Assembly: GCA_008632985.1 (NCBI GenBank)
Contig: QPGO01000122.1
Location: 1-64,000, forward strand
DNA: 64,000 nt
Direction of reading: 5' to 3'
Source of the DNA: Psammoneis japonica
Lineage: Eukaryota
Part shown: positions 1 to 62,150 of the stretch, in pieces
Numbering within the stretch: the first letter of the stretch is position 1
Layout: each line of letters opens with the position of its first letter
The notes under the pieces: generated by a model
What the model saw: only the letters and a program-made list of their open reading frames with translations
What the model was told of the DNA's origin: nothing
Database searches by the model: none
Made by a program: the position numbers and the translations under genes

Positions 1-3000
1 GTGTTCCTGACATTTGTTGCACACAGCTGTCAGTTCGGCCTCCACTTTGCATCTCTGAGAAGATTGTCTGGTTTCTACATCATGGCCGTGGATGTGCTTG
101 TTGTGCTCTTCCCCCACAATTCCCGCCATTGTTGCCAGACAAACGTTCCCATCTGTGCTGTCCAGTTTGGTGGTTGTTTGTTCTCCTCCTGGCACTGACA
201 AAGGATCCCAGAATCTTGCAGTTGTCCAGATTGATTGACATTTTCCACAGAGAGGAATGCCTTCTGCCAAACACTTGTCCCCACCCCACATTGGATTGAG
301 CTTGCCACAGAACTCTGCATCTGCAATCAATGTCTTCAAGATGCGCCATCTTGCTGTTAAACCATGCTTCGATGGACTGCAACAAGAAATCCCGAAGGGT
401 TGGCATGTTGTTGATTTGGTCACAATGCCTCCTTGGACCTTGTAGAAACTTTCTGTGCCATGGTTTGTCATGCGGACAGTGGAGCATGTGGTCCCCATCT
501 TCCATGGGATGCTCACAATGAAGACACTGGTGAGGTCTTGCTGAATTGCAATGGCGGATGATCTCATTGGTGAGGAGAAGATTGTGAACCGGCTTGACTG
601 TTCCAACGTGTTGCTTGGAATGATGTTTTATGAGGAAGGCATGAGCATCCCAATCCATCAGCTCCGTCACCTCTGGACTCCACTGATTGCATTCAACAAT
701 GCACTGCAGCAGCTGTGGGGTGGTGGCCGCATGTCTGACATGACGTTCACAACCTGTGGTCAACGTGCCATCTGGAAGACTCAAACATGAGTGACAGTTT
801 GGAAAGGGCAGCACCATTGTGGCATCCCAAGGGTGCTGGCCTTGGCATGCCCCTGCCAATCGATCCGCTCGGACGTTTGCTCTAGCATTGAGGGGCAGGG
901 CATGAATTGGAGCGTGCCAATCTTGATGGCCCTTCACTCATTTGACTGGCAGTGGCTGTGTGAAAGAGCCAGTTACAAATGTCCTCTCCATCTCAAGCCA
1001 AGTGTGCAGTGTCTCATCAATGACATCCCAGTCAGGAGACATGCTGTTGGCTCCAGGATGTCTGACATGAAAATCTCTTGTTTCATCCAATTGTTCCTCT
1101 GAGGTTGGAGCTGGAAGGATTGTGGTGAGTTGATCAAGACAAGACACCAAAGCTTTGTTGTCACAGTGTGATTCCATCTCTGGAAGCTGTTCCACTCTGC
1201 AATGTTCCATGAACCAGAAAATGAATTGAAGGAGGGACAAAATGCCACAAGCCTCTGCCCGGCATGACGACGGTCTTCTGCCAAAGACTGGTCCTGCACA
1301 ATCCACCAGTGGTGCACCGTCCAGGGTGATTGTCCACCCAAAGGCAGCTCCATCTTTGATGGATCCATCACTGCCAGCTGTTAACTTTGACGACACAAAA
1401 CATTGGATTGGCATTTGCGGTGGTGAGTGAAAGTCCAGTTGGTCAAACAACTTCTCTTTCCACTGGCCCAGCAAGTGCAGTTTGTCTTGGAACATGTCTG
1501 GGATCCTGGAGCTCAGGAAGTCTGATGATGAAGTGTGGGGCAGAGCAAATGCCCATCAACCATCTTCTGTTGTTGACAGTTCTGCCGGAAAAGACTCTTC
1601 AGACGGGGCCAGAACTGTCTCCAACTCTGTGACAGAGTTGGTCCTCATGCCATTCACTTGAAAAATTTGACATCCGTTGGTTGATCTAACACACAGTTGC
1701 TCTTCAGAAGGAGAGAAGTGTGCTGAGGCTTGCATGCACATCTGAGATGGAGGCACTGACCAATTGCCAAGAGGTTCCTTGAGAGTGTGTGATGCCGAAC
1801 GACACAGAGAGGCACAGAACTTGCGCCACGTGGTCCAGGCTCTTGTTCCTGGTTTTTGCTGTTCAACGTTGTTCAAGGAGCTGGAGTTGCTCTGAAGCAA
1901 CGGGTCTCCTGCTGTTTTCGTAGCCTCCAATGTCAAGCCATCTGCAAGAGCAATGTCAGACACTGACAACACCTGAACATGCAGTTGACAGCAATTCATC
2001 CATCTGACTTCTCTGTGAGAGAAGAGTTGGGACTGGAGCACAATGTCCATGATGCACTGATTGTCATCACGTTGAAGGGAAAAATGCCGGAATGAGTCAA
2101 ATGTGCTTTTCCTTGAATTCTGTGTGGAGAAAAACATGAACGGAGGCAAACCAACAAGATTCCACATGCGGGAGTTCTGCATCTGCATCCCACAGAAAGC
2201 TTTCTCCGGTTTCTGAGTTCAGTTGGATCCATGACACTGCAATGTGCAGCAGTTTGTGCGGTTGATCCTCTCCCAGATTTAATTTGGTGACTCCTCTGGA
2301 ATGCTTCAGCGACATTTGCAGTTGAGCAACGCCTTGCTCTGCATCCAATGATCGAAAACCTCTGCCTCCCAGGGCTTGGGGACCGCACAAGATGAATCTT
2401 TTTGCACTTTGATTGCACCCACATTTGGCAAAAACAACTCGCATGGCTTTCTGTTGAACTGCAAGCAACTCTTTGGGAAGGAAGGTTGAGTTTGGAAAAA
2501 TGCATGTCATCGAAGAAAGGCAGCAAGCGTGGTGGCATCTCCATGTTTCAATGTGATTGAAGTGACAGGATCTAAGGAAGAGGGCCGCAGCATCACTCTT
2601 GTGTTGGAGTTTCTTTAATTGGGTCTTCTGGGAACCGATTGGAGCCATGCAGTGTCCAAGAGTTTTGTGCAGTGTGTTGTGGCACATGTGCTTGCATGTC
2701 ACCAGTGTGAATGACGGTTGGATGTTTTGAAGCATGCTCCTGTTGCTTTGGCATCAAAAATGTTGAACAAATGGCTGCAAAGGGTGTTCCAGTGCCACGG
2801 AAAATTGCCGCTGCCTTGACCGGTGCCGCAGAGGGGGGAATCATCCGTGTGGGAATGACTCCGCTGGGCCAATCCCAGCAAGGTGTGCAGCCAGTGTCTG
2901 GCATGATGCAAGGCATCTATTTTAACTTTGACCACGTGTGAACCCACTCCGTCACTCCGGGAACAAAGTCCAATGATTGCAGGGACATTCTTCTCAAAGC

Positions 3001-6000
3001 ATGAGGTGAAATCATCGTCGCTTGTCAAGCAGTGTCATCTTTCTGGAAGCTCGGGACATTTCTGGCATCAGGTTTTCAAGAAACACAGGAGTCTGGGCAG
3101 AGAGGAAAGAGTGGCAGCCATAAATTCCTGGGTCACACATCCGGTGGTGCTCCATGTGTTGTGCCAGTTCTCGCCACTTTGCGCTCGTGATGATTTGAAA
3201 ATCTGCTTTGCAGATGTGAGTCACGCGCAGGCGGTGCATTTTGTTGTTGCCTGGCTCTTTGAATGTCATCACATTGATGATGTTTTTCCAGCGGTCATGT
3301 GAATGTCCCCATTTCAATGTGCAGTTAATGAGATGCAGTTGAATCATGAGTGACGTTTGCTGAACCTGGTCAAGGAGTGATCTCTTCGGGGTCGGATTGC
3401 CTTGAGTGTCTTGAGCTTTAGAGTGTGAATGAGGTGCGCACAATGCCTTCCAACATCCAAGATGTGATCCTGATTTCAGCAAGGTGGACGTTGCTTCTGA
3501 CCACGTTTTCAATTTAGACAGCAATGCGGTGGATGAGAGACAATTGTTCACCGTTGGAGGTGTGTGATGACGAAGATGCTGGACAAGTGACAAGGTCGCA
3601 TGGTTCAACTGACTGGTGTCACATTCTCCATCCAAAACAAGTTCTGCCACAATGGTGTCACCTTTGCACCCCAGGTCCACTGACAAGGGCGGGACAGTCA
3701 GCGGTGCACCTTTGGCCTGGCCAAAATGACGTTGATTCCTGGACTGAAGTGCTGCTTCGACGTCGTCCGGAGCTTCCACTGTCATCCAATGCTTGCAAGT
3801 CTTTGGGTTGTCATGAGGATTCACTGGCACTTGAACAGTCTTAACACTGGAGTCCTCCTTGGCCTTGCATGCGTTAATCTTTCTAAAGACTCTCTTGGTC
3901 TCTTCTGCACATCGCACATTGCAAAGAATTTTGGCCTGAGCTTTTGACGCTTTGGCACCTTCTAGCTCCAGTTCCGCAATTTTTGTTTCTCATTCAGAAT
4001 CACGGTGTTTCTGGCTCTCTCTGGCGATCTGTCGGCACTCGGATCTAGCACAGCGCAAAGCAGCAGAACATTCTTGGATTGTGGGAAGGAGAAAGGAAGA
4101 AGAGATTTTACATTTCTCTTGAAGAACCAAAGGCACCACATCCTTGCGATTGCGGAACATTGACATCATTCGGGACAATGCAAAACTTGTTTCCAAAGAT
4201 CGGCGAGTTTGATGGACCATTCTGGCTCTTTGTAATGTTTGCATTGCTTGGCTGCTGCCAGGGAGAATTGGGTCATGTCACGGTTGAGTTGCTCAGCAAG
4301 GCTGTGGTCAGGAGTGTCAGATTGAAACAAGGCTGTTGCATGATCCAGAATGTTTCTACTGGTGGTCAAGGGATCCATTGCTTCAAGACACGTGGTGACA
4401 TGTTTAGGAGACAATGCTTGGAGATCACTGAACTTTGGTCTTGGTGAATCAACTGACGGACTGCCGAACAGGGCAACTGTGTCAAAATCCACGAAATGGG
4501 CATGGTGATCCAAAGACATGCAACAGCTGAATGGTTCACATCCACAGTGCCGCACCGCTGCTAAAGCACCGGGGGTCACTGGCACACAATCCAAACATCT
4601 GGAGCCTTGCACACAGGCAGAAAAATCAAGGTCTTCATGCTTGTGATGCATGGCGTCCGACATGTTGAATTGTTGGGCCACAGATGTGAGAGTGTCGGAA
4701 TCGTCACGGAAGTCTGTGTTAAAATTGCCTGCCAGAATCACTTCCCGATTTGGCTCATCTCAAAAGTGTCAAGAATGCGTGTCAGATCGGTGCAGAATGC
4801 TCGCCGGGGATCTGGATTTGCTTGGCCTTGTTGATGGAGAAGCGCCACTTGTTGAGCACATGCAGTTGTTTTGCCTGCAATGGACAACGAGTTAGAGCAC
4901 ACTCTGCAACACAAAACAAACATGACCTGTTGGCCGTGCTTTCCATCAAAGATCTGCATGGACCAGCAACCCAATGGATCTTTGCATTGTGCTCGACACC
5001 TCTAGGGACAGAGAGTTGCAAGATGTGACAGCGGTGCCACCTGGTTCACAAGGAGTGGAGAAGGGAGTCTTTGATGACAAACAGGTGATTCTGCCATGAC
5101 ACAAGCCTCTTGTTGCCGCTGCCGTGCAGCTGTGCCAAACTTGGAGTTGTGCAGTGTCTGAACATGTCTCAGAGATGCCTGTGACATCAGCTTGAATTTC
5201 TGTGGCCACTTGTGCACAATCATTGATGTTGCCACCACGGTGATCAAATGAACAGCCATTGGTGTTGAACGCACACAATCTTGTGTGTCCAGACAATTTG
5301 GGGAGCAGTGGATCACCAACAGGGTCATTCGAAGACAATCTGGTGCAGTCAATGGCAGTGGAGGGAGGGGCGTGACTTCTTCCTGACAACAACTGGGTCC
5401 ACTGCTGTGCAGTGGGATTAACTGCAGACGAAGGGCATCACCCCTCATTTGGAGGCCGTGCTTCCTTGAAGGAAGGCTTTTGAAGACTTGCGTCTGCATC
5501 ATGCAGTGGAGGCAGGTGAGACAACTGGGCCTGCCTCAAAGAAAATCTGAGTCATCCATGTCTGTCACAGTTGCATCCCTGGGAGGATGATGAGAGGAGG
5601 GGGCTGCAGGGACCAACGCAGCTTGCTTCTTGCGCTGAGGAGAAACTGGTGTGTTTGGAACCACAGATGCAAACGTCTCTTGAATCGTCATTTGCAGCTG
5701 GGCTGTGAGAGTGGTTTGTAATTGTGTGGCCACTGCTTGCTGTGACTGGGTGGACAGCGCCGCAATTGATTCTTGGTGCTTCCGTTCTAGGGCTGCAAAA
5801 TGTTTTTCTTGTTCTTGTTGGTTTTGACAAACAAGCCGTTGTAATTTGGCGATTTGCACAGACTGGTTCATCACATCCGACATGGGGATGGCACCAGGGA
5901 TGACTGCTCCAGGCTCATTCTGCAACACCTGGGAATGCGTGGGAAAACCTGCATTCACTCCGACACTTTTTGGGACTGGAGGACCTTTGGATTCTGTTGA

Positions 6001-7200
6001 TTGAGGAGGAGCGATGGAAGCTGCTGGAGAAATGTCTGAAATGTCTAGAGACGCCCAACTCTGAATGCTTGTGGAAGAGATGGATTGAACCCTGTCTGAC
6101 ATGTCATCACCAATGCCAGGGATCATGGGTTTGGGTTGGGCATCTGGGATGCCTGCCTCTGCTGCAATGGCTTCAAACCACTCTGGAAGATGTTCTGCAA
6201 TGCAGTGCTTGGCTTGATGGAACAAATCCTTGTCCACAAGAATGTCGCACCTCTGGACAATGGATGGTTTCTTCAATGGGACCACATCCAGGACTCCTGG
6301 CACCTCTTTAATTGCACCTGTCAGGCAAAAAGTGGGCTTCAATGTGATGCAATGCCGGTGTGATGTGGGTCTTGGCACTCATTTTATGTTGTTTGTGGGC
6401 TGCTTTGTCAAAAGCTTCTGGTTGCAAATGACGCCAGCGGGACAAGACCAACGCAAGAGGATGTTCTTTCAACACCTCCAATGAGGCATGAATCACATCT
6501 TTTGCTTGATCATGGGGAGTTTCGATGGCATGGAAATTAGTCCGAAGAGATTGATCTGCCAGTGATGAAGCCGACTGAACTGCCAACCTGACAGGCAATT
6601 TTAAGCAGCTGCGTTGAGGGAGAAGGACCATTGACAATTTTTGAGCCACATCTTTGGGGCAATGCTTTGGGAGTGGGTCAACAAGTGGAGCCACTTGTGC
6701 CAAATCAACGATGGTCTCGTCCCAGTGGTGGTGGTGCACGCAGATGCCATTGTCTTTCAATGCTTTGTTGATGAAAGGGACATTCCTGACACAGGCAATT
6801 GACAAGGATGTGCGGATTCTGTGTGCAATGACAAACATTGGAGAACAACGGCGTGATCCACCCATGCAGTGCACGACGAAATGTTGAGAATGAGTGAGAC
6901 CGGAAGTCAACTTGACAATGTTGATTTTGGGTGTTTTAAGACCACGGTTCAACACAATTGTCATCTGATTCATCAACGGATCTTGTGAGGCTTTCTGTTG
7001 GAGAGCATTGAAGATTGTGGCATGACCCATGGCTGACACCGTGGATGTGTTGTCGTCCGATGAGGTCAATTCAAAACAGATGGCAATCTCTTTGAGCATG
7101 GTGCTTTTGGGTTTTCCGGATCCAGTTCTGGTGGGAGTGGGTGGAGCATCATCAACATCAGGTGGTGGATCTGGCTGAGGGGTCACCGGCATGGCTGGCC
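1..7200 (-). mobile_element. Decayed non-LTR retrotransposon (APE-RT-RNase H, Ambal/L1-like diatom LINE), running off the window's left edge
   Basis: Minus-strand frameshifted fragments occur in canonical order. ORF1 is 5536-7192. The APE endonuclease (4166-5392) shows LCAFNTNG, TGISET, ILAGNFN, GSRCLDC and SLDH. The RT region (1996-3917) shows WKNIINVMTFKEPGNNKMHRLRV and GTGQGSGNFP. RNase H (938-1495) shows GSDGS, SSCRAEACG and HCDNKAL. A C-terminal CLHC...DHMLHC zinc finger lies at ~460-530. Confidence 0.88.
5536..7192 (-). pseudogene. LINE ORF1 (gag-like) remnant, frameshifted near 6310-6380
   Basis: Two abutting ORFs (6308-7192, 5536-6378) with a coiled-coil segment lie directly upstream of the APE domain. 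Confidence 0.65.
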
Positions 7201-8283
7201 TGTGGCGGCAGAGGATTTGTCATGGTGACAAGTTTTCGGCACAAATTTTGTGCAGAATTCCAAGCAGAAAACCATCAACAGGAACTTACGCAGAAAAGTG
7301 CAATCTTTGTGCACAGAGGACAGATGTGCACACAAAAGCTTGGGAACTTGGGTCAGAGGGGTGTTGGTTGAAAGGCAAAAAGAGCAGCCCTCAAAAGGGT
7401 GTGACCAATTCACAACCCTCAACGGGGTGCATGTGCCAATGGGCTCCATTTCTGAATGATTGTGGGTGGAGTGCAGCAGGGTCTTGATTTAGTTTTGCGG
7501 CACCACAGGCCAGTTTGTTCTGTTCCTTGAGGTCTGCAATGCACCATGCATGCAACCGCAATTGATTGATGAAGTGAGGCATGCAACAGCACACAATTGA
7601 CACACAACAGAAGCTCGATTGACATGACTGAAGCACACATCACTGTGTGTCCGTGTGCGCAAGATGTTGCACAAGTGAGGTGAAAAAAGGGAACATGTTG
7701 ATCAAAAAGCTGACTGTGTGTTGACAAGACTTTCATGCAAAAAATGCAAAGGAGCCTGACATGTTTCAAAACAATGCTGTTCTGTGACATGGAAAGTTTT
7801 CACAGCAAAAAGTGCGCCAGATGATCACAGGACATCAGAGGCAGCAACACAGTGGTTTCCACTTTCCTTTGTAAAATTTTGAGTGTGCACTGTTGAAATT
7901 GTCAACAAGCAGAACTTAAAAAATGCCAGCAAAAGTGCTTGACAAAATGAAACTGTTTTTTGCATTTCATCTGATGTCTCATTAACTTTTCTTGCACAAG
8001 CTTCAATCAAATGCATGTGATGTTTAATTGAATTAGGACCAAAATCTATTTTTTGTTGTGCATGGTTTGGTTTCCTTTTGATCGTACACAATCAATTTGA
8101 ACTTGGTTTTAACTTTGTCCTCCTCACTCACGTGTGTGTGTCTTTGCACGTGTGCAGTCTGCAGCACTTCACGCACGCACGTGACCCACCTTCATTTTTC
8201 TTCACTTTTGCACAGCCCGTTGGTCTACGGCGTTTTCAGCACATGTTTTGCATGCGCAATTTTCTGCACATTTCACAATAGTG

Positions 8284-11200
8284 CACCCTCACCCCAAAGT
8301 TTGAAAAACGAGAGCGCGTGCTGTTATGATTCACGTGGATCTCATTGATTGACTGGATTCGTCTCTCAGAAATTTGGAGTAGATTTCTACGTAATCAGCA
8401 CAACACGTCACCAAGTTGAAGTTCATTTTGTTGGCGGGAAAACAAAAAGCATGAGAATTATCACGCACCCGGTCGCTCAACGATGATGCTCACCATTTTC
8501 CCAAAACCCATGACTTTTCATGTTACGGCATAGAGCGACCTTCTATAAACATCAGTGAAGCCCCCTCTACCCCGTGACACAAAAAACCACAATGAGCGAC
8601 GTCAGAAATTCATTCGTTGCCAAGCACGTGCAACTCGTCTTCGGGGACAAGCGTCTTCATAACTGTTGGATGCCGGTGGACCTCTGGGTGGAACATTGCA
8701 ATGCTAAATTTGGTTTTTCCAATGAGGATCTCCGTGCAATGGGCAGAGAGACAAAGAAGATGTGCAAAAACCAAGCTGGAGTGTCAAACGTGACAACAAC
8801 AAACGACATTGTCGGCGATGGCGTGAGTCTGCACAAGACAGAATGCAGTTGTCAGATTAATGGCAAACGAGGAAACCACACATTCTTTCTTGTCACTGCT
8901 GGGGTTCCTGGCCAATTTCTTCATCCTCCAACAACTGGGAATGACAGTGTTGAAGCTTGGCTGCAAAGTGGGGCAGCCCGGAAGCAAACTGGGAGAGACT
9001 CAGTGCGACGAGCAGAAATGCTCACAGAGCATTCGGAGACAGATCCCGACATCCAGAACATGGAGAAGGCATGGCAAGCAAAGAAAAAGCAACGCATTTC
9101 AAGTGAAAATGAAAATGACAACATGTCCATTGAAGATTTGGAGTCCGCCAGGCAAGACAATCTACCACGACTCGACCATTGGGATTCTACCCGAGCCCGT
9201 CGCATCTTTGCTCCGCCCTCTGTTTACCCATCTGATGTCAATGTAAAGGCGGCTGTACAAGACAGAATCAACATTCTATCAGCTGTTGTCAACCATGCCC
9301 AAGGATGCAAATCTGTGTTGCCTGATCAGGATGACAACAATGTGACTGCCGACTGTGAGAAGGTTGCCATGAGGCATCGTGCGCTGCACATCAAGGTGGC
9401 GCTTCAGACGGCGCTTGACAATCTCAAAGGCGAAGGAAATGAGATTGAAGGCAACATGAGTTGGGGTGAGTGTTGTCAACATGCTGTCACCAGACTGAAA
9501 GAAGATGGCATCACGGCTGTGTCCAACTGGCAGACGGTTCAGCGGTGGCATCGTCGTTTGGCCGACGCCGGTGATTGCTTTCCTCAAAGCCACAACCGAG
9601 GCAAACAACAGCTTCCATCCTTCTTCAGCGAGAATCCTGAGGTTAAGAATGCTTTCACTCGACATGCAATCAAAAACTTGAAGGAACTGTTGGTCGAATT
9701 GATGCACGAGCACCTCCACCAAAAAATCATGCCGGCTCTCATGCTGGGTGCAAAGAAAGACGTCGTGGTGGTGGATGACGAAGACTTTGAACAAGCTGTG
9801 GATTCTGTGGGTGAGTCTCCCGCGCTTGGTGCAGAAGAGGAAGCTGCTGAGGAAGAAACCAAGAGTTTGTTTCTTAAACAGCACAAACTCCGTTCACTTT
9901 CTATTTCTGCAACAGCACGCTGGATGCGTCTCCTGGGATTTAGATGCACAAACAGAATGAAAGGATTTCATGTCGATGGTCACGAGAAGCCCGCCACAAA
10001 GTCGCATCGCAAGAAGTTTACAAAGGAGCATCTTGAGTTGGAGAAGAGGTGCCACCGGTGGATTCAATTGCCCTTGGACGAGGCGACCGAGCTCATGAAC
10101 CAATCATTGGTTCCGCGTCGGGGTGAAAGCTCTGTGTTCACTCGTGATGGCAATGTGTTTGTTGAGTTTCAAGTGGACGACTACAGTGGTTTCCATGATG
10201 TGATTGTGCAATCGGACGACTTGAATGCAAGGCAGCATGGCGGCCATCTGAGTTTCCACTTTCCCACTGGTGAAAAGCCCATCATCATGTGGGGACAAGA
10301 TGAGGCCATCTACAAACAGTTCCTGTTGACTGAGAAGGCGTGGGTGGGACCCAATGGCGAGACGGCTCTTGTCCCGAAAGATGAAGGTCCAGGTGTCATG
10401 CTGTCTCTGTTCACATCTCGCGAGTTTGGTTTGTTGCGTGAGCTTGACAAGGAGCTGCTCAAGCAAGTCAATGAAAAGAGAAGTGGAACCAAGTGCAGTG
10501 ATGAGGAAGCAGCAAAGGAAGCCAGGAAATCAAGCAACAAGAAGGACTTGGAGAAGAGCCCGTTCCTGGTGAAATTCGAGCACGGCTCCAACGATGAAGG
10601 CTGTTGGAACCACAATCACATGGTGACACAGTTGGAAGACTGTGTTGATGTGTTGGATGAAATGTGTCCAGAATTTGAGCACGTGTTTTTCTTTGATCAC
10701 TCGGCAGGCCATGCGAAGCAGAGGGAGGACGGCTTGTCGGTTGACAAGATGAACCTGGGCTGGGGCGGGAAATGCAAAATGAGAGCAAGCAGGCTCACAG
10801 ACAAATGCATTGGACAGCATGACAATGCTCACAGATTGCAAAGTGGCAAGACACAAGCAATGGCATTCCAGGAGGAAGACAAAGGGCCTTGCCTCATGGC
10901 TCCGGAAGAACGACAGCGACGAAAGCACGACATTGTGACGAGCGAAATCAAGACCGTTGACAAGCTCAGAGAAGAGCCAGAAAATGATCTGAAGCAAAAT
11001 GATGCAAGCCACACGGTTCTCAAGGGTACAACCAAAAAGGATTTGCAAGATGATTGCGAAAAAGCCGGCATTCCTACAAAGAAGACCATTCCGAAGACAG
11101 CACCTGGTTGGACAGGCAAGCCCAAAGGATTGCTGCAAGTCTTGATTGAACGTGGTTTGATTGATGCAAGCCTAAAATGTGGAAAGGGAGGGACAAACAA

Positions 11201-12005
11201 TGAGCATGGGAGCTGCAAGGAAAATGCTGAGCCCGCAGAACTGCTTGCCTCCTGCAAAGATTTGCGAATGAAACAACGCAACTTCAGCATCATGCGAAGC
11301 TGCTGGGGGTCCGAGCAATCTTGACTCCAAAATGCCATGCCGAATTGGCGGGAGAAGGCACAGAACATCTCTGGGCATGCTCCAATGGTCAGTGTCGAAA
11401 CCTCAACCTGTCACAGAAACGAGGGAAAGACAATTTCAAAAAATCAGTTGATTGTTGCTTGTCGGAGGAGGCGTTGACCTTGAACGCATTCGCAAGTTTG
11501 CCAAACGCGCAAGACAGTGCATTCAAGCTTGCCATGTTGACAATGGATGCGTGGAGGACACAGAGAGGGTCCACGAATTTGGACCTGATGCGCTTGACAA
11601 GATGATCAAGACGTTCAAGACACACTGATGTGCTCTTGATTTCGAGTTCAAGTTCGTTCACTGCATTGCGGAGAACGAGGTTGCAGCTGCAATCTTGGAG
11701 TGAATTTCGGAGCAAATTTTCAAAATCGCGCAGCCACAGCACAATTTGTACGGGGACATTTTTGTGACGTCAACATGACAATCACCATCATCATCAGAGA
11801 GCATGTTTCATTTTATGCCAGCTTGCGTACATTTCTGCACCAAGGAGTGTCACGACAAATCCAGCAATGCGTGTGGTCGCAAATCTGCAAATCGACAACC
11901 GGCCATGGCGGTGAAAGACTTTGCCCCATTGGCCGAGGACAGCAGCTCAACGTGTGGTGACACCTGCCATCCTTCTGGTTGGTCAAGATGGGGTTTTATT
12001 GGGTG
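8284..12005 (+). mobile_element. IS630-Tc1-mariner-related DNA transposon (large DDE transposase); ends tentative
   Basis: Contains the transposase below. Weak terminal IR tg|CACCC...ACCCCA..TTGA (8284) versus TCAA..TGGGGT..GGGTG|ca (12005). The flanks are compatible with a mutated TA TSD. Confidence 0.55.
8592..11700 (+). pseudogene. DDE transposase, mostly open (916-aa ORF) with a frameshift near 11270-11320
   Basis: Motifs VDGHEK, GQDEAIY, PKDEGPGVMLS, EGCW, FFFDHSAGH, PKGLLQVLIERG, then TPKCHAEL..EGTEHLW in the next frame. These match the DGHE/DES/FDNS/PKFHCELNPIE type of ITm transposase. Confidence 0.85.
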
Positions 12006-12251
12006 CAGCTTGAATTTTGTGATCGCGAGTGTGCTGTCACGAATCTACTGCGTCCAGAATGCTGAGCTGCTGGCGTGTTGTTGTGTGTTGTGTGCACGCA
12101 CGTCACAAACTTGCTTTTCTGCAGCATTGTTGTAATCGCGCATGTCAGAATTTTGCATCCAGAATCATCACAAGTTACCATGACCCCACTCCCAGCGCAT
12201 GCCATGCAGTGGTTCGCCGCGTGAAATCACGGATGCGCGCGACTGTTGCCC

Positions 12252-12836: not shown

Positions 12837-12869
12837 ACATTTTGCCCGAGTGGGGATAAATTGCACTGT

Positions 12870-19330: not shown

Positions 19331-19399
19331 ACATTGGTCAAGGCCATGGCCAATGTCCTGCAATGCTGCAAACAAGGAACCAGCAGAGGTGCCATGAGT

Positions 19400-32887: not shown

Positions 32888-32979
32888 TAATACGAATACA
32901 ATCGACAACAATCGTACCGTGCGGCAGCAAAGTTCGTGTTCGCTCCAAAAGCAACGAGTCAAAGCATAAGTGAGACACA

Positions 32980-33642: not shown

Positions 33643-33690
33643 GACTTTAATACTACTCGTGTAAGTGTTCTGAGATATGTGCGAACAAGT

Positions 33691-40796: not shown

Positions 40797-40801
40797 GCCA
40801 G

Positions 40802-47605: not shown

Positions 47606-47733
47606 TACGACGTCAGGCCATTTACGACTGAAAGCTGAAAGCGCCGACGTGTCAACAGCGGCGTCTCCACATCTCACATCGCATCAAGTTGCTGTTGTCG
47701 GATGAAAGAGACAGAGGAGAACAAGAGTTGAAA

Positions 47734-50024
47734 ATGAAGACGTGGGAGGGAATCGAAGATATAAGTCCAAAGCCGAGCTGTGTATGGTGAGTGACGTTTC
47801 GTAAATCGTATAGATGAACTTCGGTGTTTACACATCCTGAACGCGCGGTATCTTTGAATCTTGTTTCTTTCAACAGGCTAACTCGTCCAAGTGTCGATGA
47901 CTTGTGGACACCATTGCGTAAATCGGATTGTAGAGCATTGAACGAAAGCCCCGGAACTGGTCCAGTTTACATTGATGGTGGTCGGCAAACTGCGGTTCGA
48001 GCCGAAGGCATTATTCGCCACAATTTCCACAATGATGTTCCCACGACTCAACTCTCTTCGGCAACATGGTTTGTCAGAGAAGAAAATACTCAAAAGAAAC
48101 CAAAGTACATACTGCATCCCATGTCGAGACTAGACTGTGACCTTGTGGTAGGTCGCTGCAGAACTTGTATACTCTGTCCCTTTGACAGCCGCTTTCTTTT
48201 TTTCTTACTCCGGATTGTTTTTCTTTCGGCGCAGGAGGATTTGTATCAACGAGCTGTTGCAGCCACATCCTCTTTGGGTAGTGGCATTGACGACGTTTTA
48301 CAAGAAAAGTATGTCTTACAGGACGACGCTGAATACCACGTTATGGTTGTCAAGGTTGGCAATACACTCAGCATGAAGAAAAAGTACACCAAAGGTTGGT
48401 TTGGTACATCCTTCGACTTGCAGCGCGGGTGGGGTGAGTACACGGTAGAGGGAGAAGAAGAAGAGCTACTATTGGGTCCAGTCGATCAGGTTATTTTTGT
48501 TGTTCACGGTATTGGAGAAGCTATGTGGTCACGAGATGTAAAAAGCAAGAGCGTTGTTGGCGAAGTTAACAAAGCACGCATAGCAATGCAAAAGATGCAG
48601 GTGGAAGAGCACAAGAAGCGGGTGGAAAACGCGAGAAAGGCTGGGTACGTGTACGCCTGTAAGCTTGTGTTTTGGATTCTTTTATTATCTGCCACATTAT
48701 TCTCAAATCTTCGTTTATTATATTTTAAAGCGAATCGGATCCTCCGCCGCCGAGAAGAATCGAGTTGCTACCTATCGAATGGTACGATCGAATTCATTCT
48801 TCATCGAACGCTCTCATGACGAGTCTAAAGGCCACCACCATTCAGTCGATTCCCGCTTTAAGAGCTATTGCGAATGATGTCATTTTTGATGTGCTCATGT
48901 ACATGACACCGACGTTTTGTCATTCTGTGTTGGAATGCGTCACGGAACAAATTTCCAACTTGTACCAGACATTCAGTCAGGTCCACCCAGAATGGAACGG
49001 GAAGTGTTCTATAGCGGGGCATTCTCTGGGTTCGGTAATTGTTTGGGATCTCTTGTGTATACTCCGAGATGACGAGCGAAAGAGAAAAGGGGAAGGAAAG
49101 ATGACTCATAGCGGGGAACGGCTACCAGAGGTTAACCTTGCCAATTGTGATGTTGCCATTGAAGAGGAAGGGACGCCAGTCTCTCCACACGGTTATCAGG
49201 CCTATGCTACCACAGATGAGCACGCCAATACCGCCGCGAATGGAACCTGGGGACCAACTCTGCCTAAGCCCTTGGAAAAGCGGCTTCCTTTCGTACCAGA
49301 TTTCACCTTGTTTCTAGGCTCACCCATTGGATTATTTCTCACGCTACGGGGCGCTCACGCTGTCTTTGATGAAATGACAACGTTGGCCGACAAGAGCAAG
49401 GCTGATGATAATGACGATGATAGCCGTTACAACAACTCCGTTGTTTCGCCTTTCACATTGCCATCTGGCACCGTGCTAAACATATTTCACCCGAGCGACC
49501 CAGTGGCATACAGAATCGAACCACTTCTTTTACCGCGAGATACGAAAAATATTCGCGTTCCGCCTCCCAAATACTTGGTTCCAGAAGGGCAAGATGTTCG
49601 TTTTCATGTAAAGGCTCGCGAGCTAACGAGGGCCTTTGCCGAGAAAACAAACTATACTTGGTCTTCCCTTGTGACTCAGGTTGCAGAACAGGCTGCGGCC
49701 TTGTCGTCAGAGCTCACTCAGGACCCGTCTGATCTTAAAGGCCAGTCCAAAGATACTTTCCGTCCAACGATCTTCCCGCTGGGAGGGAAAAGCCAACGCG
49801 TTGACTACCAACTACAGCCAGGAGTAGTTGAGAGCGAGTACATTTCGGCTGTCATGGCTCATTCGAGCTACTTTGTCAATGCAGACGTCTTGGACTTTAT
49901 TCTGAATCTTGTGGAAGAAAAGAACGAAATCGAGACATTAGAAGTAGCATCCGTTAATGCGCAAGCGCATTCTGACGACAAACAGCCGCCTTTGTCGCCA
50001 ACGCCGCTGCCGTCGGTACTTTAG
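47734..50024 (+). CDS. DDHD-domain phospholipase A1 (SEC23IP/DDHD2-like), 3 probable introns
   Basis: VIFVVHGIG, LPIEW, GHSLGS lipase motif, FLGSPIG, NIFHPSDPVAYRIEPL, RVDYQL and AHSSYF. GT..AG introns at ~47788-47876, ~48148-48234 and ~48645-48730. Confidence 0.9.
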
Positions 50025-51730: not shown

Positions 51731-51742
51731 TGTCGCGCCCAA

Positions 51743-53491
51743 CCCTTCAACCACCAGGGGAGCAAATTTCCACGGTGGAGATTTGCTCTATTTAACGATT
51801 TGTGACGTGTCATGCACCTTTATAATAATATAATGAACATAGTATTAAAATGTCATATCGCGTAGAATCTACGTAAAGTACGCCACGTGCATTTACTTAT
51901 TGGGAGCAAATCTCCACCGGTGGAGATTTGCTCCAAGGGTGTGGCATTATTGCTCTATTTGCGATAGTAATTCATGATAACCTTCATTGTTGAAGGTTGA
52001 GATTCAGTTCCTCTCTATTCATAGATGAAGCTTGCAAAAAACCCGGTGTTAAAAGTCGACATTGAACTTTCTAAATTACAAAAAGGGTTCCCCCAGATTT
52101 TCGGCGAAATGGACTATGGAGATTTGAAAAAATGGTCGCACTCGGCCTGTCCTTCCTTGCGTTCACAAAACTTGTGTAGGATTCTACGTACGTAATATTA
52201 CGTGGGGCAATACTGAAATGGCAGTTGCACCAATCCGGCCTCATTCAAATTTGCGTGAGGCCAACGCAAACGGCACTTTCACGATGATGCGGCGGCGGCG
52301 TCTTCAGTACGTTCCCGTAGCCATACCACAGTATATGCTTCTAGATGTGACAATGTGTTGGAAAGTTTGAAAGAGATCTGTCTCATTGGTGGCGTCTCTG
52401 ACGGTGTTGTTTTCAACATGAATTTGTGGACTGGACTGTGCATTGTGGCAGGGCTGAATGTGGCAGCACTGGCGGCGGCAGGAGCCTTTTACTGCTTTTG
52501 CACTGGGGGTGACTGGAGCCTGTGTGCTGCTGTCCTTTTTATCTGGTGGCGGTTGGCACCCCTGCACGATGCTGGTGCTGGTGGTGGTTGGAGCTTTTTT
52601 GCTGCCAGCCAGTGGTTGCAGTGGGAGCCTGCACATCGCTGCCACTGTGGCACTGGTGGCGGTGGGATCCTGTGTGCCACTGGCACTGGAGGCGGTTGGA
52701 GCCTTTTGCTGCTAGAACTGGCGGCAGCAGCAGCCTGTGTGCTGCTGCTGCAGCACTGGTGGCACCAGCATTCGAGGCGGTTGGATTCTTTTTATCTGGT
52801 GTTGATGGTGCCCCTGTGTGCTGCTGGCAGTGGTGGTGATTGGAGGTGTTTTGCTGCTGGCAGTGGTGGCAGTGGGAGCCTGTGTGCTGCTGGCAGTGGT
52901 GGCAGTGGGAGCCTGTGTACAACTGCTGCCACAGCAGTGGTGACGGTGGGCGCCTGCGTGCTGGCGGCACTGGAGGCGGTTGGAGCCTTTTGCTGCGGGT
53001 GCTGGTGGCAGTGGGAGCCTGTGTGCTGCTGGCACTGGCAGTGGTTGGAGCCCATGTAACACACCAACCATCGGCGGCGGGATCTTGAGATGACCGGTGA
53101 CGACTCGTGGAGAGATTGCTTGGGGGTTTCAATGCAATCACATGTTTAAAAACCAGTGCTTTAGATTGTCAACGTAGCTCTCAATGATGATGATCTCTTG
53201 TCTCTACATTCTTTTGATGATGTGGTGCAACAGTGTCTTCTTTTTAGCATCGCGGCCGATGATTCACCACACTAGCTACTTGCACCACGTCTGATTTTCA
53301 TCTCAGATGCATGGCGACAGACGGACAGTGCGACCAATTTTTCCGAATCTCCATGGTCCATGCGCGTTCCAAAACAAAATCGCGCGAATGAAACATTGTC
53401 CACATCTGAAATTACTTCATTTGCCACATTTGTGACATGAGGGAGCAAATCTCCACCCGTGGAGATTTGCTCAAGTCCGGTGGTTGAAGGG
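51743..53491. mobile_element. Non-autonomous piggyBac-like element: CCCT..AGGG ends, CCAA 4-bp TSD, subterminal 30-bp palindromes
   Basis: ccaa|CCCTTCAACCACC...GAGCAAATTTCCACGGTGGAGATTTGCTC and GAGCAAATCTCCACCCGTGGAGATTTGCTC...GGTGGTTGAAGGG|ccaa. A perfect palindrome lies at 51904-51933. Confidence 0.8.
52440..53055. repeat. Degenerate ~33-bp minisatellite (GCTGGCAGTGGTGGCAGTGGGAGCCTGTGTGCT)
   Basis: Many imperfect head-to-tail units inside the piggyBac-like element. Confidence 0.85.
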
Positions 53492-53499
53492 CCAAGGTG

Positions 53500-54460
53500 T
53501 CCATGGGGTTGGTGGTTGTTGTGGTGGGGAAACAGGTGGTGGAGGAGGGCGTGCGTAGCGCGCTGGGAGAGGGAGAGAAAAAGGGTTGGCCGCGGGTGCA
53601 GACAGATGGTCGTGAGGAGGAGTTGGTGATGGTGGGATGGTGGAGGAGGAAAGCTTGACATGCAGAGAGATGGTTGGAGAGAGCAAAGCCAAAATTGAGA
53701 CTGAGGATTTGGGAAGCCCAGAGCAGGGGTGTTGCTGCATGACAGGAGGAGCCGAAGTGATCGGGTGAAAGTTGTTTCCAGGCCGCGTTGGATTGGGCAA
53801 GGAGGTTGGAAGGAGCCAAAAGGGAGTTGGTGCAGGCAGAAAAGGATGCTTGCAAGTTGGATGAAGAGGATGGGCTGGACCAGGGCGGTTTGGGAGGGAG
53901 GGGCGGGACGGAGGAAGAGGCAGTGGTGGAAGCGCCAAAGAAAAAGACATGGAAGTGATGTCCAATGCCTCCAAGGTGGTCGAAGGTAAAAGGGAGGAGG
54001 AAGAGGCCTGCTTGGTTGATGGCGTCAATGATGTCAGAGCCATGAGCAGAGGATGTAGAACGGCCGAGGAGCTTGTCCCGAGTGCTGCTGAGGTGAGCCT
54101 TGTTGAGCGGGTTTTCAGGGACAGGCAAACCAGGTGCAGGAGGCGGGGGAGCGGGCAGTGCGGTGACATCAATTGCTGGGAATTGGTGGGTGGATGGGGC
54201 GTTTGGTGGTGTGGAGCCGGGAGCAAGTTGGATGCCGATGTCGGCGGGGCGTTTTGGAGGGTGGTTGGGTGGGAGTCCGGCAGGGTTGAGGTGGACTTGT
54301 TGGCGAGACCGGCAGAGACTGCACATGGGGCCAAGGGTTTCGATGACAGTGTAGATGGTGTCACGGATGTGGTTGGACAGAGGGCCTTTGTGCATTTTGG
54401 AGCAGGCAAAGGCGTGATCGCCGTGCGGGTCGGGGCGGGTGTGGCCGCACCCGCTTGTTG
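53500..54460 (-). mobile_element. 3' fragment of an RLE-type (CRE/R2-like) non-LTR retrotransposon
   Basis: CG..DPHGDHAFAC...SNHIRD...RPADI...AIDVT...LLPFTFDHLGGIG (zinc knuckle plus PD-(D/E)xK-type endonuclease). Confidence 0.78.
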
Positions 54461-56314
54461 CGCGTAAATCACGCTCACTGCACTGCGCGCTTTGCTGCCG
54501 CACCTGCCTGCCTGCTTGCCTGCCTTCTTGCTCATCCCGGCCATCTGTCCGCACTGCCGGCTCCGCCTTTTTTCCGCGGCCGCCCCTGCAGCTCGTCGCG
54601 TGATGACTCACTCAACCACCATCCGTTTCTGTTTGTCACACCAACACAAACTCTTTCACAAAGTGTCACTTGCTGGGTGAACAACAGTGTGCAAGAACTC
54701 GTTGCTTTGTCCAAGGAGGAGTGCTGTCCACAGGTGAAAAAAAAAACACACAAGCAGAGGAAGCTGGGCGACACAAACAAAACAGGGATGATGTGAGCAG
54801 CAAGGTTCGCCCACCGCGGTGGTTTTGAGTCAAATCACATTCAGCAAGATGACCAGATCACTTGCAGAAATTGATCAGCTGCTCTCAAAATGACCAGCAA
54901 GATTTGCCAAACAGCACCCCCCCACCCACCCCCCGGCTCGCGCCTCCTCCACTTCAGCTTGGCTCTGCGTGCATTCTAGCCACACAACTGTGCTTGGGGA
55001 CAGATTCAGAAAAAACAACATTTGATCTTTTGTGCCATCAACAGCATGTCACAGATGCCAGATCAAATGCCAATGATGGCACAGCAGCAATGACCTGAGT
55101 TGGCAATGTTGCATTGACTCCACACCCATCACTCTGCCCATCTGCCCGCTGCATGCTTGATCCCCTGCCTTGGTGCCACTGCCAACACTGAGCATGCATG
55201 ATGCACTTCAATGACAATCAAAAGGATGCACTCCAGGAGCCAAGCCCCCCAGCTGGTGCCTGCTCAATGGAGCAGTTCATTGACAGTTTGACTGCAGTGC
55301 CCTGCACAGCAGGCATCTCATTCTCACAATGCCCTCTTGTGCATGTTGGCAGCACCTTTTCATGAGAACAAGACTGCAGTGTGAAGCACTCAAAGCAACT
55401 TGTGCCAGAGAGGCCAGCTCCATTGTGTTGGCTGGCTCAGCTTGTGTGCTGCAGGCTGCAGGCACTGTGGCCCAATGATTGGCCAGTTTGACAACTGACA
55501 GAAGTTCTGCTGCTCAACTGTTTGTTCCGTCATCTCTGGCAACTGCCCATGTTGGAACTTCAATCAGTTGATGACTTCATCAAGCACACAAAGTTTTTGT
55601 CCAACATTGCCAACCTGCTCATTTTTTCCATTCAAGCCCTTGAGCCTGCTGCAACATGATGAGTGTGCTCATTTTCTTCTTCTTCTCTGCCAAATGTCCA
55701 TTTTCCATCCATGCCATTTGCAAATCATGAGCTGCTTGCCTTGCTGAGTGCACCTCCTTCTCTTTGGGGGGCTCGCTTGTCCTCAGCACAACATCATGAG
55801 TGGGGCCACTGGGTTGGCTGACTTCCAACATGAAAGTCAGCCTTGGCACACATCTGCTGCCTTTCAATGCTGGGACTCTCTTGGCTCAAGATGTGGCTGC
55901 ACATCGTTGCACACTTGTCTTTGCCAGTGGGGGCAAGTTTCAGAAAATGTTTTCTGTGTGCCAGAGCACGGCAAAAACAGGTTGCGAGATGGCGAGTGTG
56001 CTGCAGTGTTCAAAAGAAGTTGAGAAGGCACAACAGCAGGCAACAGAGAGCATCAAAATAGCTCACCCAAGTAACAATTCATTTCCGCTGCATGTGCTCT
56101 TCCAGCGGATCGGTCCCACAAAGCAACCAAATCAGAAGCATGGAGATTCCACATTCCTCTTCGCAAGCACGTTGGCCCCTTGCGACCGCACCGACCCAGC
56201 CACAGACCTCCCAAGCCGGGAGTGGCACCGACGACCACATGCTGAATGCGACCTACCAGCCACCATGGACCTTTGACTTGTCACACTCAGACTTGTGCCT
56301 TTGTAGTAGCGACC

Positions 56315-59691: not shown

Positions 59692-60249
59692 CTCAGCACA
59701 TTTAAAAATCAGCACTTCAAAAGAAAACATCAGCACCTTTTTTTTAAATTTCCAGCACTGTGAAAACTTTTTGCATGCCGACAAATTCTGAGGCACCGCC
59801 TCTGCTCAGCACCCAACATGACAACACCACAACAATGGCACGGGTGCCGTTCGTTGAACACAGTGGGGGTGATCCAGTGTTGAAATTGCTTTGTGAGATT
59901 GTCACACATGTTGTTTGTGACAAACTTGCGAAGAGACTTGGGCGCTGGAGCACCTCCATTGGTTCAATGGGGAGTGGCGTTTGTGTGCCGTTGTCATGGT
60001 GTCATTTGCACAGTGAGCACAAATGCTCGTGGCTGTTTTTTCCACAAATGATTCATTGTTCAGCAAAGACATGGCCCATTCCAGTTGCTTTCTGCAGCAC
60101 ACATGTGAAAAACAAGGGCATTCAAAGGTGCTCGGTTTTTAAAAAAGGCGCTGGTTTTTTGCATCGTTTTTAAAAGGTGTTGAAAATGAATGAAGGTGCT
60201 GACTTTTTGGGCTCTTTACAAAAGGTGCCTGATTTTTAAAGGTGCTGAG
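59692..60249. mobile_element. Stowaway/Tc1-type MITE with CTCAGCAC TIRs
   Basis: tg|CTCAGCACATTTAAAAATCAG ... CTGATTTTTAAAGGTGCTGAG|ca, with repeated CAGCAC/GTGCTG subterminal motifs. Confidence 0.75.
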
Positions 60250-60369
60250 CACAGCATTGTGTCTTGGAGAGGTGTCTGGCACAGACACACTTGGCACGTT
60301 CCAAATGCCCTTGACCAGGTTGTGCCGACTCCCCCCGTTTGTTTCTCCTGTCATGTCCCAAGCTTGCTT

Positions 60370-62150
60370 TTCTCAGCAAGACATTCTCAGAAATGATGTT
60401 CACCATGTGAGTGTCAGCAGATCCATTGGCAAAGTCTGCATCATGCAACCTGGAATCCAAGGTTGGACTGGAGTTCCCAGCACTGATTGGCGCTCCATCT
60501 GAATTGCACTCTTTCCTGCTTGTCACTTTTGCATGAGTGAGCTTTCCACCATGTGGCACAGCACAAACTCCGTGGTGATGCACTCATCCATTGCCTCTGG
60601 CATGTGCTTGTTGGCTTTGAGATGGAAAGAATCACTCTCAAATGGCTCAAGATCTTTGCCCCTGTCATCATCACCAAACAATGTCACCTGGCAGTTCCGG
60701 AAAATCTGCAGTGACTTTTGCCTTGTCAGCTGTCAGTCTCCACAGAGAAGCTCAGCATGCAAAGATGCAAAGGAGAAGATCATCAATTGCACACAGAAGA
60801 AGCACAAACAAAGTGCCCATTTGGCAAGATCCTTGGAAGACATAAAATGCAAGGATTTCAGCTCCAAGAAACCTGGCCTGGGTGCACCGAAGACAGCAAT
60901 GTCAACTGAGCCAATGAAGTCAGATTGTCAGAGCGCCAACTGAATGAGATGCAGAGGGAAGAAAAAGAGCTGGAATGTCAGTGCAAGGCTGAGCCAAATG
61001 AGACTGCAATGACAAAGTGAGGAAGTTCAAAGAGAACAAGACCACCACTTTCACCACTGTCCTGGACAACTGCTGTGCCAAGCCAACAAAGCAAACAGTG
61101 CAGGGTGACCCCAGTCACACAAGCACTGGCAATGATCCAATCAAGTTGCCAAAGCTGATTCAGTCCCCTGCATTTGACTCAATGAGAGGTTGTCCACATC
61201 CACCCCATGCACTTGCCAAGTCTCTGAAGAACATGCTGGAAGTGAAACAGCAAAAGAGAGGAAGTCACTGAACAATCACCTGCCAAGATTCAAGAGTTGG
61301 TGAGATGCCACAAGCAACGGTCTGGGAGACAGAGCGCCAGATGAATTTGTTGAGAACACTGACAATCACAAGGACAGCATTGCGCTGGTCCAGAGTGCAC
61401 TTAAAAAGGCAGCATTTGAAACATGTGCTGCACACCTGTCTGTTGAGAACAGCAATGATTGCTGCCACAAGAGCTCAAAGAAGATCTTGGCAAGAGACCA
61501 TGGCCTGGGCAAGGGCGCGCATTCAAAAATCCCAGATGAGGCAACAGACATGCCACCAAATCATCCGGAAAACAACAGCCCTTGTGAACAACACAGCAAG
61601 TGTTCAAACAACAAGAACAGGAGTGACAAAAGGAAAAATGAGAGGCCCAGCAGTTGGAAGGACCAGAGTCATGCCCCAACAGGCAACCAAGATGATGCCA
61701 CAAAGTGCCGTTGTTGTGGCAAGCAAAGCCACAATGTCCCACATTGCAGACACAAAAGTGAGATTCCAGCCTGCACAACAGCTGGTTCAGGAGTGCTGGA
61801 GAGAAGACATGTTTGGTGCCAGGGGACAGAGTCACAAACACAGACAAGAGACGAGAAGACTTCTTCTCATCAGCAGCAGACAGCGACAATGTGAGTGCTG
61901 ACACTGCCAGATCATGCAGTCAACTCACTCCAGCCGCAGCATGAACAAACTTGCATGGCGCAGGTTGCAGCTGGAAAAAGAAAGGCAAAAGACAAGCCTG
62001 GGCCAAGCAAAGTGAGCAAAATGTGCCACAGTCACTGAGAATTGGTGAGAAACTGCAGAAAAGCATTGATGCAGCAATCAACAGGATTTCTGCTCTCTGG
62101 CAGAGAGAACTGTGACAAGCAAACAAAAGCGACAGTGGTGGCCGTCGCCA
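60370..62150. mobile_element. Decayed copia pieces: pol linker fragment (minus, ~60370-60600) and gag with Zn knuckle (plus, ~60600-61900)
   Basis: PHGGKLTHAKV...PTLDSRLHDADF is homologous to 17530-17700. NDPIKL and CRCCGKQSHNVPHC (CCHC-like) occur on the plus strand. Confidence 0.7.

Follow-up and report, generated by a model that had tools for sequence, protein, structure and literature searches.

What kind of process can strip one dinucleotide, TpA, almost completely from long stretches of DNA and leave the DNA between them ordinary? This question is raised by a 64-kb stretch of contig QPGO01000122.1 from the diatom Psammoneis japonica (hereafter the window), to which all the composition statistics below refer. 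An earlier note on this DNA had proposed that TpA is converted to TpG or CpA by a mutagenic process that acts on DNA, is aimed at repeats, reaches all transposon classes, and spares the host genes. Our analysis makes it highly probable that a locally targeted, post-integration hypermutation of TpA, acting at the DNA level on mobile-element DNA, has operated in this diatom. The case is the second of its kind, in a distant lineage and far more extreme; the first was described in a single preprint on the rhizarian alga Bigelowiella natans. The best evidence comes from one element in the window, a DIRS-order retroelement, and most of the argument below is built on it.

The window has a GC content of 49.8% and observed/expected (o/e) ratios of 0.285 for TpA, 1.44 for TpG, and 1.46 for CpA. 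When it is segmented by the TA o/e ratio in sliding 400-bp windows, six TA-poor blocks, each with a ratio of 0.05–0.13, alternate with six TA-normal blocks at 0.45–0.76 (Table 1). The pooled TA-poor blocks (42,206 bp) contain 268 TA, where base composition predicts 2552 (o/e 0.11), and 200 mononucleotide shuffles of the same blocks gave a mean of 2551 with a standard deviation of 38 (z = -60). The pooled TA-normal blocks (20.5 kb) contain 865 against 1409 expected (o/e 0.61). The near-absence of TpA is therefore confirmed, and even the rough figure given beforehand for the first 7 kb, about 40 TA, was accurate: there are 41, where composition predicts 450. No other dinucleotide shifts comparably to TA, CG, TG, and CA in the TA-poor blocks; pooled, these have ratios of 1.23 for AA, 0.89 for AT, 1.23 for TT, and 0.54 for CG. 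GC-biased gene conversion was considered and ruled out, because AT, AA, and TT are not depleted. The borders are sharp, with the TA density changing over less than 200 bp at each of them, and those of the fourth TA-poor block, at 38062–38121 and about 47056–47207, are the ends of the DIRS-order element. It should be mentioned that a 500-bp island at 12200–12700, with a TA o/e of 0.49 and a CpG o/e of 1.17, lies within TA-poor DNA and may represent host DNA caught between two insertions.

The depletion has a strong effect on coding capacity. TAA and TAG together occur 4.0 times per kb in the TA-poor blocks versus 17.9 times per kb in the TA-normal blocks, so that TGA is nearly the sole stop codon of the former and long spurious open reading frames (ORFs) appear on both strands. 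Tyr accounts for 10 of 4679 residues (0.21%) in ten ORFs of the TA-poor blocks versus 105 of 3838 (2.74%) in host ORFs. The TA-normal blocks carry host genes recognized by Pfam: an FAD oxidoreductase, an ICln-like protein, a DDHD protein, a bestrophin (closest named relatives in diatoms, with identities of at most 57%), and a 1390-aa MutS/GIY-YIG protein. As had been claimed, TpA is normal there, with an o/e of 0.56 in the ORFs. The mutational reading would have been in difficulty if TpA were equally low in unique DNA, and it is not: the ratio is 0.68 in the 9080 bp of non-ORF DNA of these blocks. The converse idea, that TA has been gained in the TA-normal blocks as in the repeat-induced point mutation (RIP) of fungi, was rejected, since the conserved genes there have ordinary Tyr contents.

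The fourth TA-poor block coincides with an element whose identity as a Ngaro-like retroelement of the DIRS order is firm (57% GC, TA o/e 0.13). It is bounded by repeats in the order A1 ... B1-A2-B2, and such split direct repeats are typical of Ngaro elements. The remnant of its polyprotein, which probably had reverse transcriptase (RT) and RNase H regions, runs collinear with a homologue of 1273 aa through three frames, which implies two frameshifts, near 42438 and 42896. The ORF at 40796–42523 has 1065 relatives (HMMER), and the nearest Atlas clusters of the C-terminal 774 residues of the homologue (500–1273) are RVT_1, RT_RNaseH, and Dam-like (score 0.95). A profile of the polyprotein family found no match among PDB sequences. 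None of 12 long intact homologues contains a Pfam domain, so the blindness of Pfam here is partly a matter of family coverage rather than of decay. The last ORF of the element is related, at about 50% identity, to 351 sequences, of which those with a species name belong to the diatom Fragilaria crotonensis; relatives of the element come from Fragilaria and Cylindrotheca. When an intact homologue of this ORF was modelled (predicted local distance difference test, pLDDT, 76.6), Foldseek retrieved the tyrosine recombinases Cre, XerH, Tn1549 Int, and lambda Int (best E 2.8e-5, probability 1.00, template-modelling scores 0.49/0.61), and a profile of the family gave one chance-level match among PDB sequences. 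Judged by the predicted fold of the homologue, the element carries a tyrosine recombinase in place of a DDE integrase. The DIRS-like family is large, occurs in diatoms and metagenomes, and lacks Pfam coverage in the recombinase too (0 of 120 listed relatives). In a few of the homologues, Tyr is itself almost absent (one of 506 aa has none), a hint that the process has also been at work in other sampled organisms.

The direction of change is from TA to TG or CA, and three independent polarisations agree on it. The DIRS-order element is the one element with usable homologues, and we defined a conserved Tyr column as one with Tyr in at least 60% of them, which gave nine columns in the polyprotein and ten in the recombinase. 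At these 19 columns, the window reads Cys at seven (TGC or TGT), His at eight (CAC or CAT), Tyr at two, Phe at one, and Asp at one; the nine polyprotein columns read three Cys, three His, two Tyr, and one Phe. Even the two near-invariant C-terminal Tyr codons of the recombinase have become TGC (at 45892) and CAC (at 45931). The other conserved columns are kept in 308 of 367 and 162 of 211 cases, 470 of 578 together, significantly more often than Tyr (Fisher's exact test, p = 1.3e-10), and conserved Ile fares badly as well (0 of 4 and 2 of 6 kept). The intact homologues have Tyr, not Cys or His, at these columns and an ordinary Tyr content (medians of 2.3% and 2.9%). The reading of conserved Tyr as Cys or His, already noticed in the unaided sequence, thus holds in this element.

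A paralogous comparison and the overall composition point the same way. A 433-bp repeat, here called repeat R, is present once inside the third TA-poor block and once in TA-normal DNA; 16 of the 22 substitutions between the copies are TA outside versus TG (nine) or CA (seven) inside. Contigs from sequencing run X1 provide a further comparison: among the 40 variants listed of 640, nine have TA where the window has TG or CA and none has the reverse, while 23 are exchanges of CG with TG or CA and eight are others. The numbers of missing TA plus CG and of excess TG plus CA, relative to the TA-normal blocks, nearly balance in five blocks (715/642, 742/677, 262/239, 187/151, and 190/169); in the first block, the missing dinucleotides are 395 TA and 320 CG, against the excess of 642.

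The repeats of the DIRS-order element also tell when, and on which molecule, the changes were made. Such terminal repeats are presumed identical at insertion, and A1/A2 and B1/B2 together provide 684 aligned bases. Between A1 and A2 there are four doubles (TG in one copy opposite CA in the other), three sites with TA opposite TG or CA, two with CG opposite TG or CA, and four other differences; between B1 and B2 the corresponding numbers are seven, three, eight, and eight. In total there are 11 doubles, six TA sites changed in one copy, four shared TA, 10 CG sites, and 12 others, so that, of the 50 differing bases, TA-derived sites account for 28, CpG sites for 10, and other positions for 12. 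CpG decay, at a per-copy fraction of 0.11, would yield 0.28 doubles. The 11 seen are far above this expectation and mark ancestral TA sites at which each copy was hit separately, on one strand or the other. The original number of TA sites works out at about 32, with a per-copy mutated fraction of 0.78 and a background divergence of 0.0088; relative to that background, the per-site rate is about 173 times for TA and 13.8 times for CpG, the latter thus being about 12 times slower. Across the TA-poor blocks, TG (4265) and CA (3988) are near equal in number. The mutations were therefore made in DNA, after insertion, and on both strands. The claim of a DNA-level mutagenic process, which changes TA to TG or CA in place, is upheld by these repeats and by the paralogue.

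Not every TA was lost with equal ease. As a measure of context we used the ratio of TA density between the TA-poor and the TA-normal blocks, on the assumption that tetranucleotide usage in the elements was originally host-like. The ratio rises from 0.007 for ATAC/GTAT and 0.008 for ATAT through 0.07 for ATAA/TTAT, 0.08 for ATAG/CTAT, 0.09 for GTAC, 0.16 for CTAC/GTAG, and 0.27 for GTAA/TTAC to 0.38 for CTAG, 0.40 for CTAA/TTAG, and 0.55 for TTAA. These values argue strongly that the loss depends on context: R-T-A-Y (R, purine; Y, pyrimidine) is almost erased, and TTAA is about half retained. An additive one-neighbour model, fitted by hand to the four palindromic contexts, accounts for five of the six others within about 20%, with ATAC/GTAT standing apart (3.6 predicted versus 4.96). 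The TA that survive in the repeats (GTAC, TTAA, ATAG, CTAG, CTAA, GTAG, CTAT, TTAG, and TTAC) are mostly in disfavoured contexts. Because these counts are symmetric, the preference they show may lie in the base 3' of the edited A, a pyrimidine, or in the base two positions 5' of it, a purine.

A second process, the decay of CpG, is superimposed on the first. In 39 one-kb windows of TA-poor DNA, the CpG o/e ranges from 0.07 to 1.05 and the TA o/e is uniformly low (0.02–0.28); CpG correlates with TG/CA at r = -0.84 and with TA at r = 0.49. Because TA is low regardless of the state of CpG, the TA process must be faster than methylation-driven decay and is not tied to it. The CpG ratio is 0.07–0.28 in 17001–23000, 55001–56000, and 60001–62000, compared with 0.6–1.05 in other TA-poor parts. 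This unevenness presumably reflects a separate process, cytosine methylation of some elements only.

How might all this come about? We propose that mobile-element DNA integrates and that its TpA is then converted to TpG or CpA by an A>G change on either strand, at about 170 times the background per TA site, in a process that halts at the ends of the element. Sites of the form R-T-A-Y are preferred, and TTAA, CTAA, and CTAG largely spared. Coding capacity is destroyed as Tyr becomes Cys or His and Ile becomes Met, Thr, or Val, and slower CpG decay, presumably by deamination of 5-methylcytosine (5mC), is superimposed as a separate process. The data show the depletion and its blocks, the direction, the timing after insertion in DNA, the involvement of both strands, and the effect of the flanking bases. 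Beyond this, we infer that the action is enzymatic, that it is targeted through chromatin state or small RNA and not through repetition of sequence as such, and that it may serve genome defence.

If the process is real, its chemistry may tentatively be taken to be the deamination of adenine at T-A by a DNA adenine deaminase, an assignment to which we give somewhat less than even weight. The outcome is A>G only, with some leaning toward a pyrimidine on the 3' side; tRNA deaminases act in a U33-A34 context, and the T at -1 matches it. A different chemistry, which we regard as unlikely but a serious competitor, starts from the other base of the pair: thymine at TpA could be oxidised or otherwise modified by a TET/JBP-type enzyme (5-hydroxymethyluracil, 5hmU, to 5-formyluracil) and then pair with G, or error-prone gap filling could follow its excision. 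Since an A>G and a T>C change at TpA mirror each other, the data fit an attack on either base. Dinoflagellate 5hmU and kinetoplastid base J are both found preferentially at TpA. The version with polymerase (Pol) eta, which was one of the two candidates offered beforehand, is disfavoured. Its WA targeting (W, A or T) predicts a loss of AA, and the AA ratio is 1.23 in the TA-poor versus 1.13 in the TA-normal blocks; the suggested trigger, repair in methylated DNA, is weakly linked at best, since TA is low over the whole range of CpG ratios. The authors of the Bigelowiella work, in the main text of their preprint, favour an ADAT2-like deaminase, as a proposal.

Adenine deamination in DNA must also be weighed against deamination in RNA. 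ADAR-like A-to-I editing of retroelement transcripts, fixed by reverse transcription, would explain A>G changes with a T (U) at -1, and the best-known block is indeed a retroelement, but we consider this very improbable. The terminal repeats derive from one template at insertion and yet differ by the 11 doubles and six single TA sites; edits in a sense RNA would give one outcome, while each copy has both TG and CA, in about equal numbers overall; and non-coding repeats and a probable DDE-type ORF with 0.4% Tyr are affected as well. To our knowledge, ADARs are confined to animals. For the DIRS-order element, the differences between its repeats at TA-derived sites exclude ADAR-like editing before integration and APOBEC-like editing of one strand.

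Could the bases be modified rather than mutated? A mark on T or A at TpA that is misread as C or G would produce the block-wise, R-T-A-Y-specific pattern expected of a DNA-modifying enzyme, and the only DNA run that holds the window comes from one sample. Assembly error is not the explanation. A contig built independently from the public run X1 covers 28001–30772 and matches the window at 2762 of 2772 bases, with seven of the ten differences at CpG sites, two of TA versus TG/CA, and one other; seven X1 contigs over host blocks show no differences. The TA-poor sequence is thus reproduced by independently built contigs, although possibly from the same sample. Misreading is, in our judgment, scarcely probable. 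The replacements of Tyr by Cys and His stand alongside two frameshifts and ordinary substitutions, as in decayed copies; misreading on both strands would add CG, which is depleted instead; within a family, the copies differ site by site (TG, CA, or TA) in high-depth contigs; and the same change is heritable in B. natans, according to the main text of the preprint. Least probable of all is that the blocks arrived TA-poor from a foreign or viral source or that selection removes TA (through UA-cleaving RNases, TATA-like sites, or restriction): dinucleotide avoidance is known in viruses and phages, and the GC-rich element has a composition of its own, but a paralogue outside the blocks keeps its TA, the repeats of the element diverged at TA after insertion, homologues elsewhere have normal Tyr contents, and replacements at near-invariant residues, including the C-terminal Tyr of the recombinase, are inactivating rather than selected.

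We return to TpA hypermutation of mobile-element DNA, against which several observations have to be set. A transposon is identified with certainty in just one TA-poor block of the six, and in four blocks the direction of change is read from mass balance alone. The DIRS-order element is itself unbalanced relative to the host baseline (373 missing, 49 in excess), probably because its native, GC-rich composition differs. Of 46 polarised events, 30 were informative about the choice of strand, and 19 of these, not a significant majority (p = 0.2), favour the 3' pyrimidine. Run X1 may be the source sample of the assembly, with possibly the same chemistry. The unmutated copy of repeat R belongs to a high-copy family (summed X1 depth of about 600 versus about 61 for unique DNA, i.e., roughly ten or more copies), and the part of the third TA-poor block at 28001–30668 has single-copy depth in run X1 at identities of at least 90%. 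An unmutated high-copy repeat directly beside a mutated element and a single-copy TA-poor block argue that repetition alone does not explain the targeting, in which age, past copy number, chromatin context, or small-RNA guidance may play a part, and the word "repeat-targeted" in the earlier note goes beyond what is shown. The right end of the third block, 30669–32002, is a very high-copy repeat (depth 1750–2818 versus about 61), other copies of which retain TA at five sites within 31715–31760.

As to the nature of the other TA-poor blocks, mobile origin is firm for one block, and there are leads only for two. The earlier note had named Ngaro, copia, LINE, ITm, and ISL2EU elements and had spoken of all transposon classes. 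Ngaro is established and is the one class in which the process is firmly shown; a DDE transposon is a lead from the Atlas; copia has one weak RVT_2 match (E 0.0024); and LINE and ITm found no support in Pfam or PDB searches. That RVT_2 match, to a copia-type RT, is the sole relevant one among 291 ORFs of at least 70 aa (149 + 142) in TA-poor blocks searched against Pfam at E <= 0.01; the other 290 gave no credible family, and seven other weak matches (holin, DUF5569, apicomplexan microprotein, DUF3083, XPG_I, and DUF7190) are to unrelated families and were taken as chance. Pfam searches with 72 long ORFs, and with the 20 longest at E <= 5, likewise found nothing for the TA-poor ORFs, and ORFs of the first block had no match in PDB. 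A 921-aa ORF, P0001, is probably the DDE_3-type transposase of a DNA transposon. It has 0.4% Tyr, and its length is beyond chance even where a single stop codon remains. It has no relatives in a word-indexed search and chance-level matches only with phmmer against PDB, and its single-sequence fold is unusable (pLDDT 37). Around it, inverted-repeat islands pair 7833–7879 with 16638–16684 and 8234–8298 with 16213–16277; the flanking arms align in these two islands only, at 67% overall, so long terminal inverted repeats are tentative. Two tandem arrays were also found: 13296–13655 (186 bp x 1.9, second TA-poor block), whose copies differ by swaps among TG, CA, and TA, and 52813–53038 (33 bp x 6.6), at the edge of the fifth.

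Table 1. TA-poor blocks, the DIRS-order retroelement, and other features of the window
Feature	Position	Strand	Remark
TA-poor block 1	200-12100		TA o/e 0.11, CG 0.51, TG 1.63, CA 1.65
TA-poor block 2	12800-23000		TA o/e 0.10, CG 0.30
TA-poor block 3	25900-31900		TA o/e 0.12, CG 0.77
TA-poor block 4	38100-47000		TA o/e 0.13; coincides with the DIRS-order element
TA-poor block 5	53300-56100		TA o/e 0.06; zero TA in 55001-56000
TA-poor block 6	59700-62100		TA o/e 0.05, CG 0.26
DIRS-order, Ngaro-like retroelement	38062-47195	+	bounded by A1 and B1-A2-B2
Terminal repeat A1	38062-38303	+	93% identical to A2
Probable RT-RNase H polyprotein remnant	40841-44553	+	tblastn; collinear with 1273-aa homologue
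Tyrosine recombinase remnant	44728-45945	+	open frame; 0 of 10 conserved Tyr left
Repeat B1	46042-46494	+	91% identical to B2
Repeat A2	46485-46726	+	zero TA remaining
Repeat B2	46742-47195	+	91% identical to B1
Repeat R, hypermutated copy	31060-31491	+	inside TA-poor block 3; 4 TA left
Repeat R, unmutated copy	47188-47620	+	TA-normal DNA directly after the DIRS-order element; 21 TA
921-aa ORF P0001	8559-11321	+	nearest Atlas clusters DDE_3 (score 0.93, 188 shared features); lead only
Weak copia-type RT remnant	18290-18625	+	RVT_2; in TA-poor block 2

Two observations concern the host genes. The 1390-aa protein is encoded by one apparently intronless ORF (33694–37863, minus strand) with MutS domain I, MutS domain V, a C-terminal GIY-YIG nuclease, and a weak DNA_pol_A-like match at its N-terminus. 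The combination of MutS I, MutS V, and GIY-YIG is what we take to be the plant-type MSH1 architecture, that of a factor in organelle genome stability. In sequencing run X2, contigs over 28001–48000 lie on host-gene blocks only, as a transcriptome would behave, and one of them skips 90 bp with GT..AG ends at 47785–47876, an intron upstream of the DDHD ORF. No X2 contig lies on the TA-poor parts of 28–48 kb, which we do not take as evidence of silence.

The earlier note knew of no description of such a system, and this has been overtaken by a 2026 preprint. In its main text, mutation-accumulation lines of B. natans are reported in which the integrated DNA of a giant virus and of a virophage acquires about 6e-7 mutations per site and generation, more than 1000 times the baseline (bioRxiv 10.64898/2026.01.13.699255). 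The changes are almost only A>G/T>C, all of them on TpA (Mettrop et al., bioRxiv 10.64898/2026.01.13.699255), and 124 clusters depleted of TA, in which DDE and RT domains are enriched, are reported from the genome (bioRxiv 10.64898/2026.01.13.699255). The process is interpreted there as defence against invading DNA, with an ADAT2-like deaminase as a candidate (bioRxiv 10.64898/2026.01.13.699255). Our literature search found no such process described in diatoms, or in any organism besides B. natans, and the main text of the preprint mentions neither diatoms nor a flanking-base preference. The two cases share the change from TpA to TpG or CpA and its local nature, in clusters depleted of TA and enriched in CA and TG. 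They differ in the host, a diatom here and a rhizarian there, in the targets, viral DNA there and here a retroelement with probably other mobile-element DNA, and in degree: the nucleocytoplasmic large DNA virus of B. natans is, in that main text, moderately depleted (Rho TpA 0.45), and the virophage is not depleted, whereas ratios of 0.05–0.13 cover two thirds of our window. In B. natans, new mutations were observed directly, in some of the lines only, as the main text relates, whereas here the process is known from its footprint in the sequence; the one hint of recent change is the pair of TA versus TG/CA sites among the ten differences between the window and the X1 contig. The R-T-A-Y context and the proof from terminal repeats that mutation followed insertion are found here and not in that main text.

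Better-known systems resemble the process in part. Like RIP in Neurospora, it consists of dinucleotide-specific transitions at the DNA level that leave elements riddled with missense changes and neighbouring genes spared. RIP uses cytosine methyltransferase-like enzymes. Its polarity is the reverse, since RIP makes TpA from CpA and the process here removes TpA, and RIP is triggered by duplication, whereas here an unmutated high-copy repeat adjoins a mutated element. CpG decay through 5mC also feeds TG and CA, is present in the same blocks, and cannot remove TA; it is slower and uneven between blocks. The deaminases ADAR and APOBEC of animals likewise hypermutate mobile elements, and ADAR shares the preference for a 5' U/T. 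However, their substrate is RNA or single-stranded cDNA, which they edit prior to integration and on one strand, and APOBEC gives C>T, whereas the changes here were made after integration and on both strands.

We speculate that diatoms and chlorarachniophytes may share an old, dedicated defence pathway, a T-A base editor that works best at R-T-A-Y, acts on integrated mobile and viral DNA, is directed by chromatin or small RNA rather than by duplication, and erases coding capacity soon after insertion. We hold this view tentatively, as somewhat short of an even chance; the pathway possibly spans the whole stramenopile-alveolate-rhizarian group. If true, it would be the functional mirror image of fungal RIP and would involve a new kind of double-stranded DNA adenine deaminase or thymine modifier. 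The process in the window would add a second, independent case of mutational genome defence to that of RIP, of opposite polarity and with an apparently different targeting rule. A natural T-A-specific A>G editor of DNA would interest the base-editing field, and the presence of the signature in a distant and ecologically dominant lineage makes comparative genomics a realistic route to the enzyme. The finding also has practical consequences for genomes of this kind. Transposon annotation is expected to fail systematically in them, as Pfam is near-blind, Tyr is missing, and spurious long ORFs would mislead gene callers, and the dating of insertions by divergence will be badly inflated by the TpA process.

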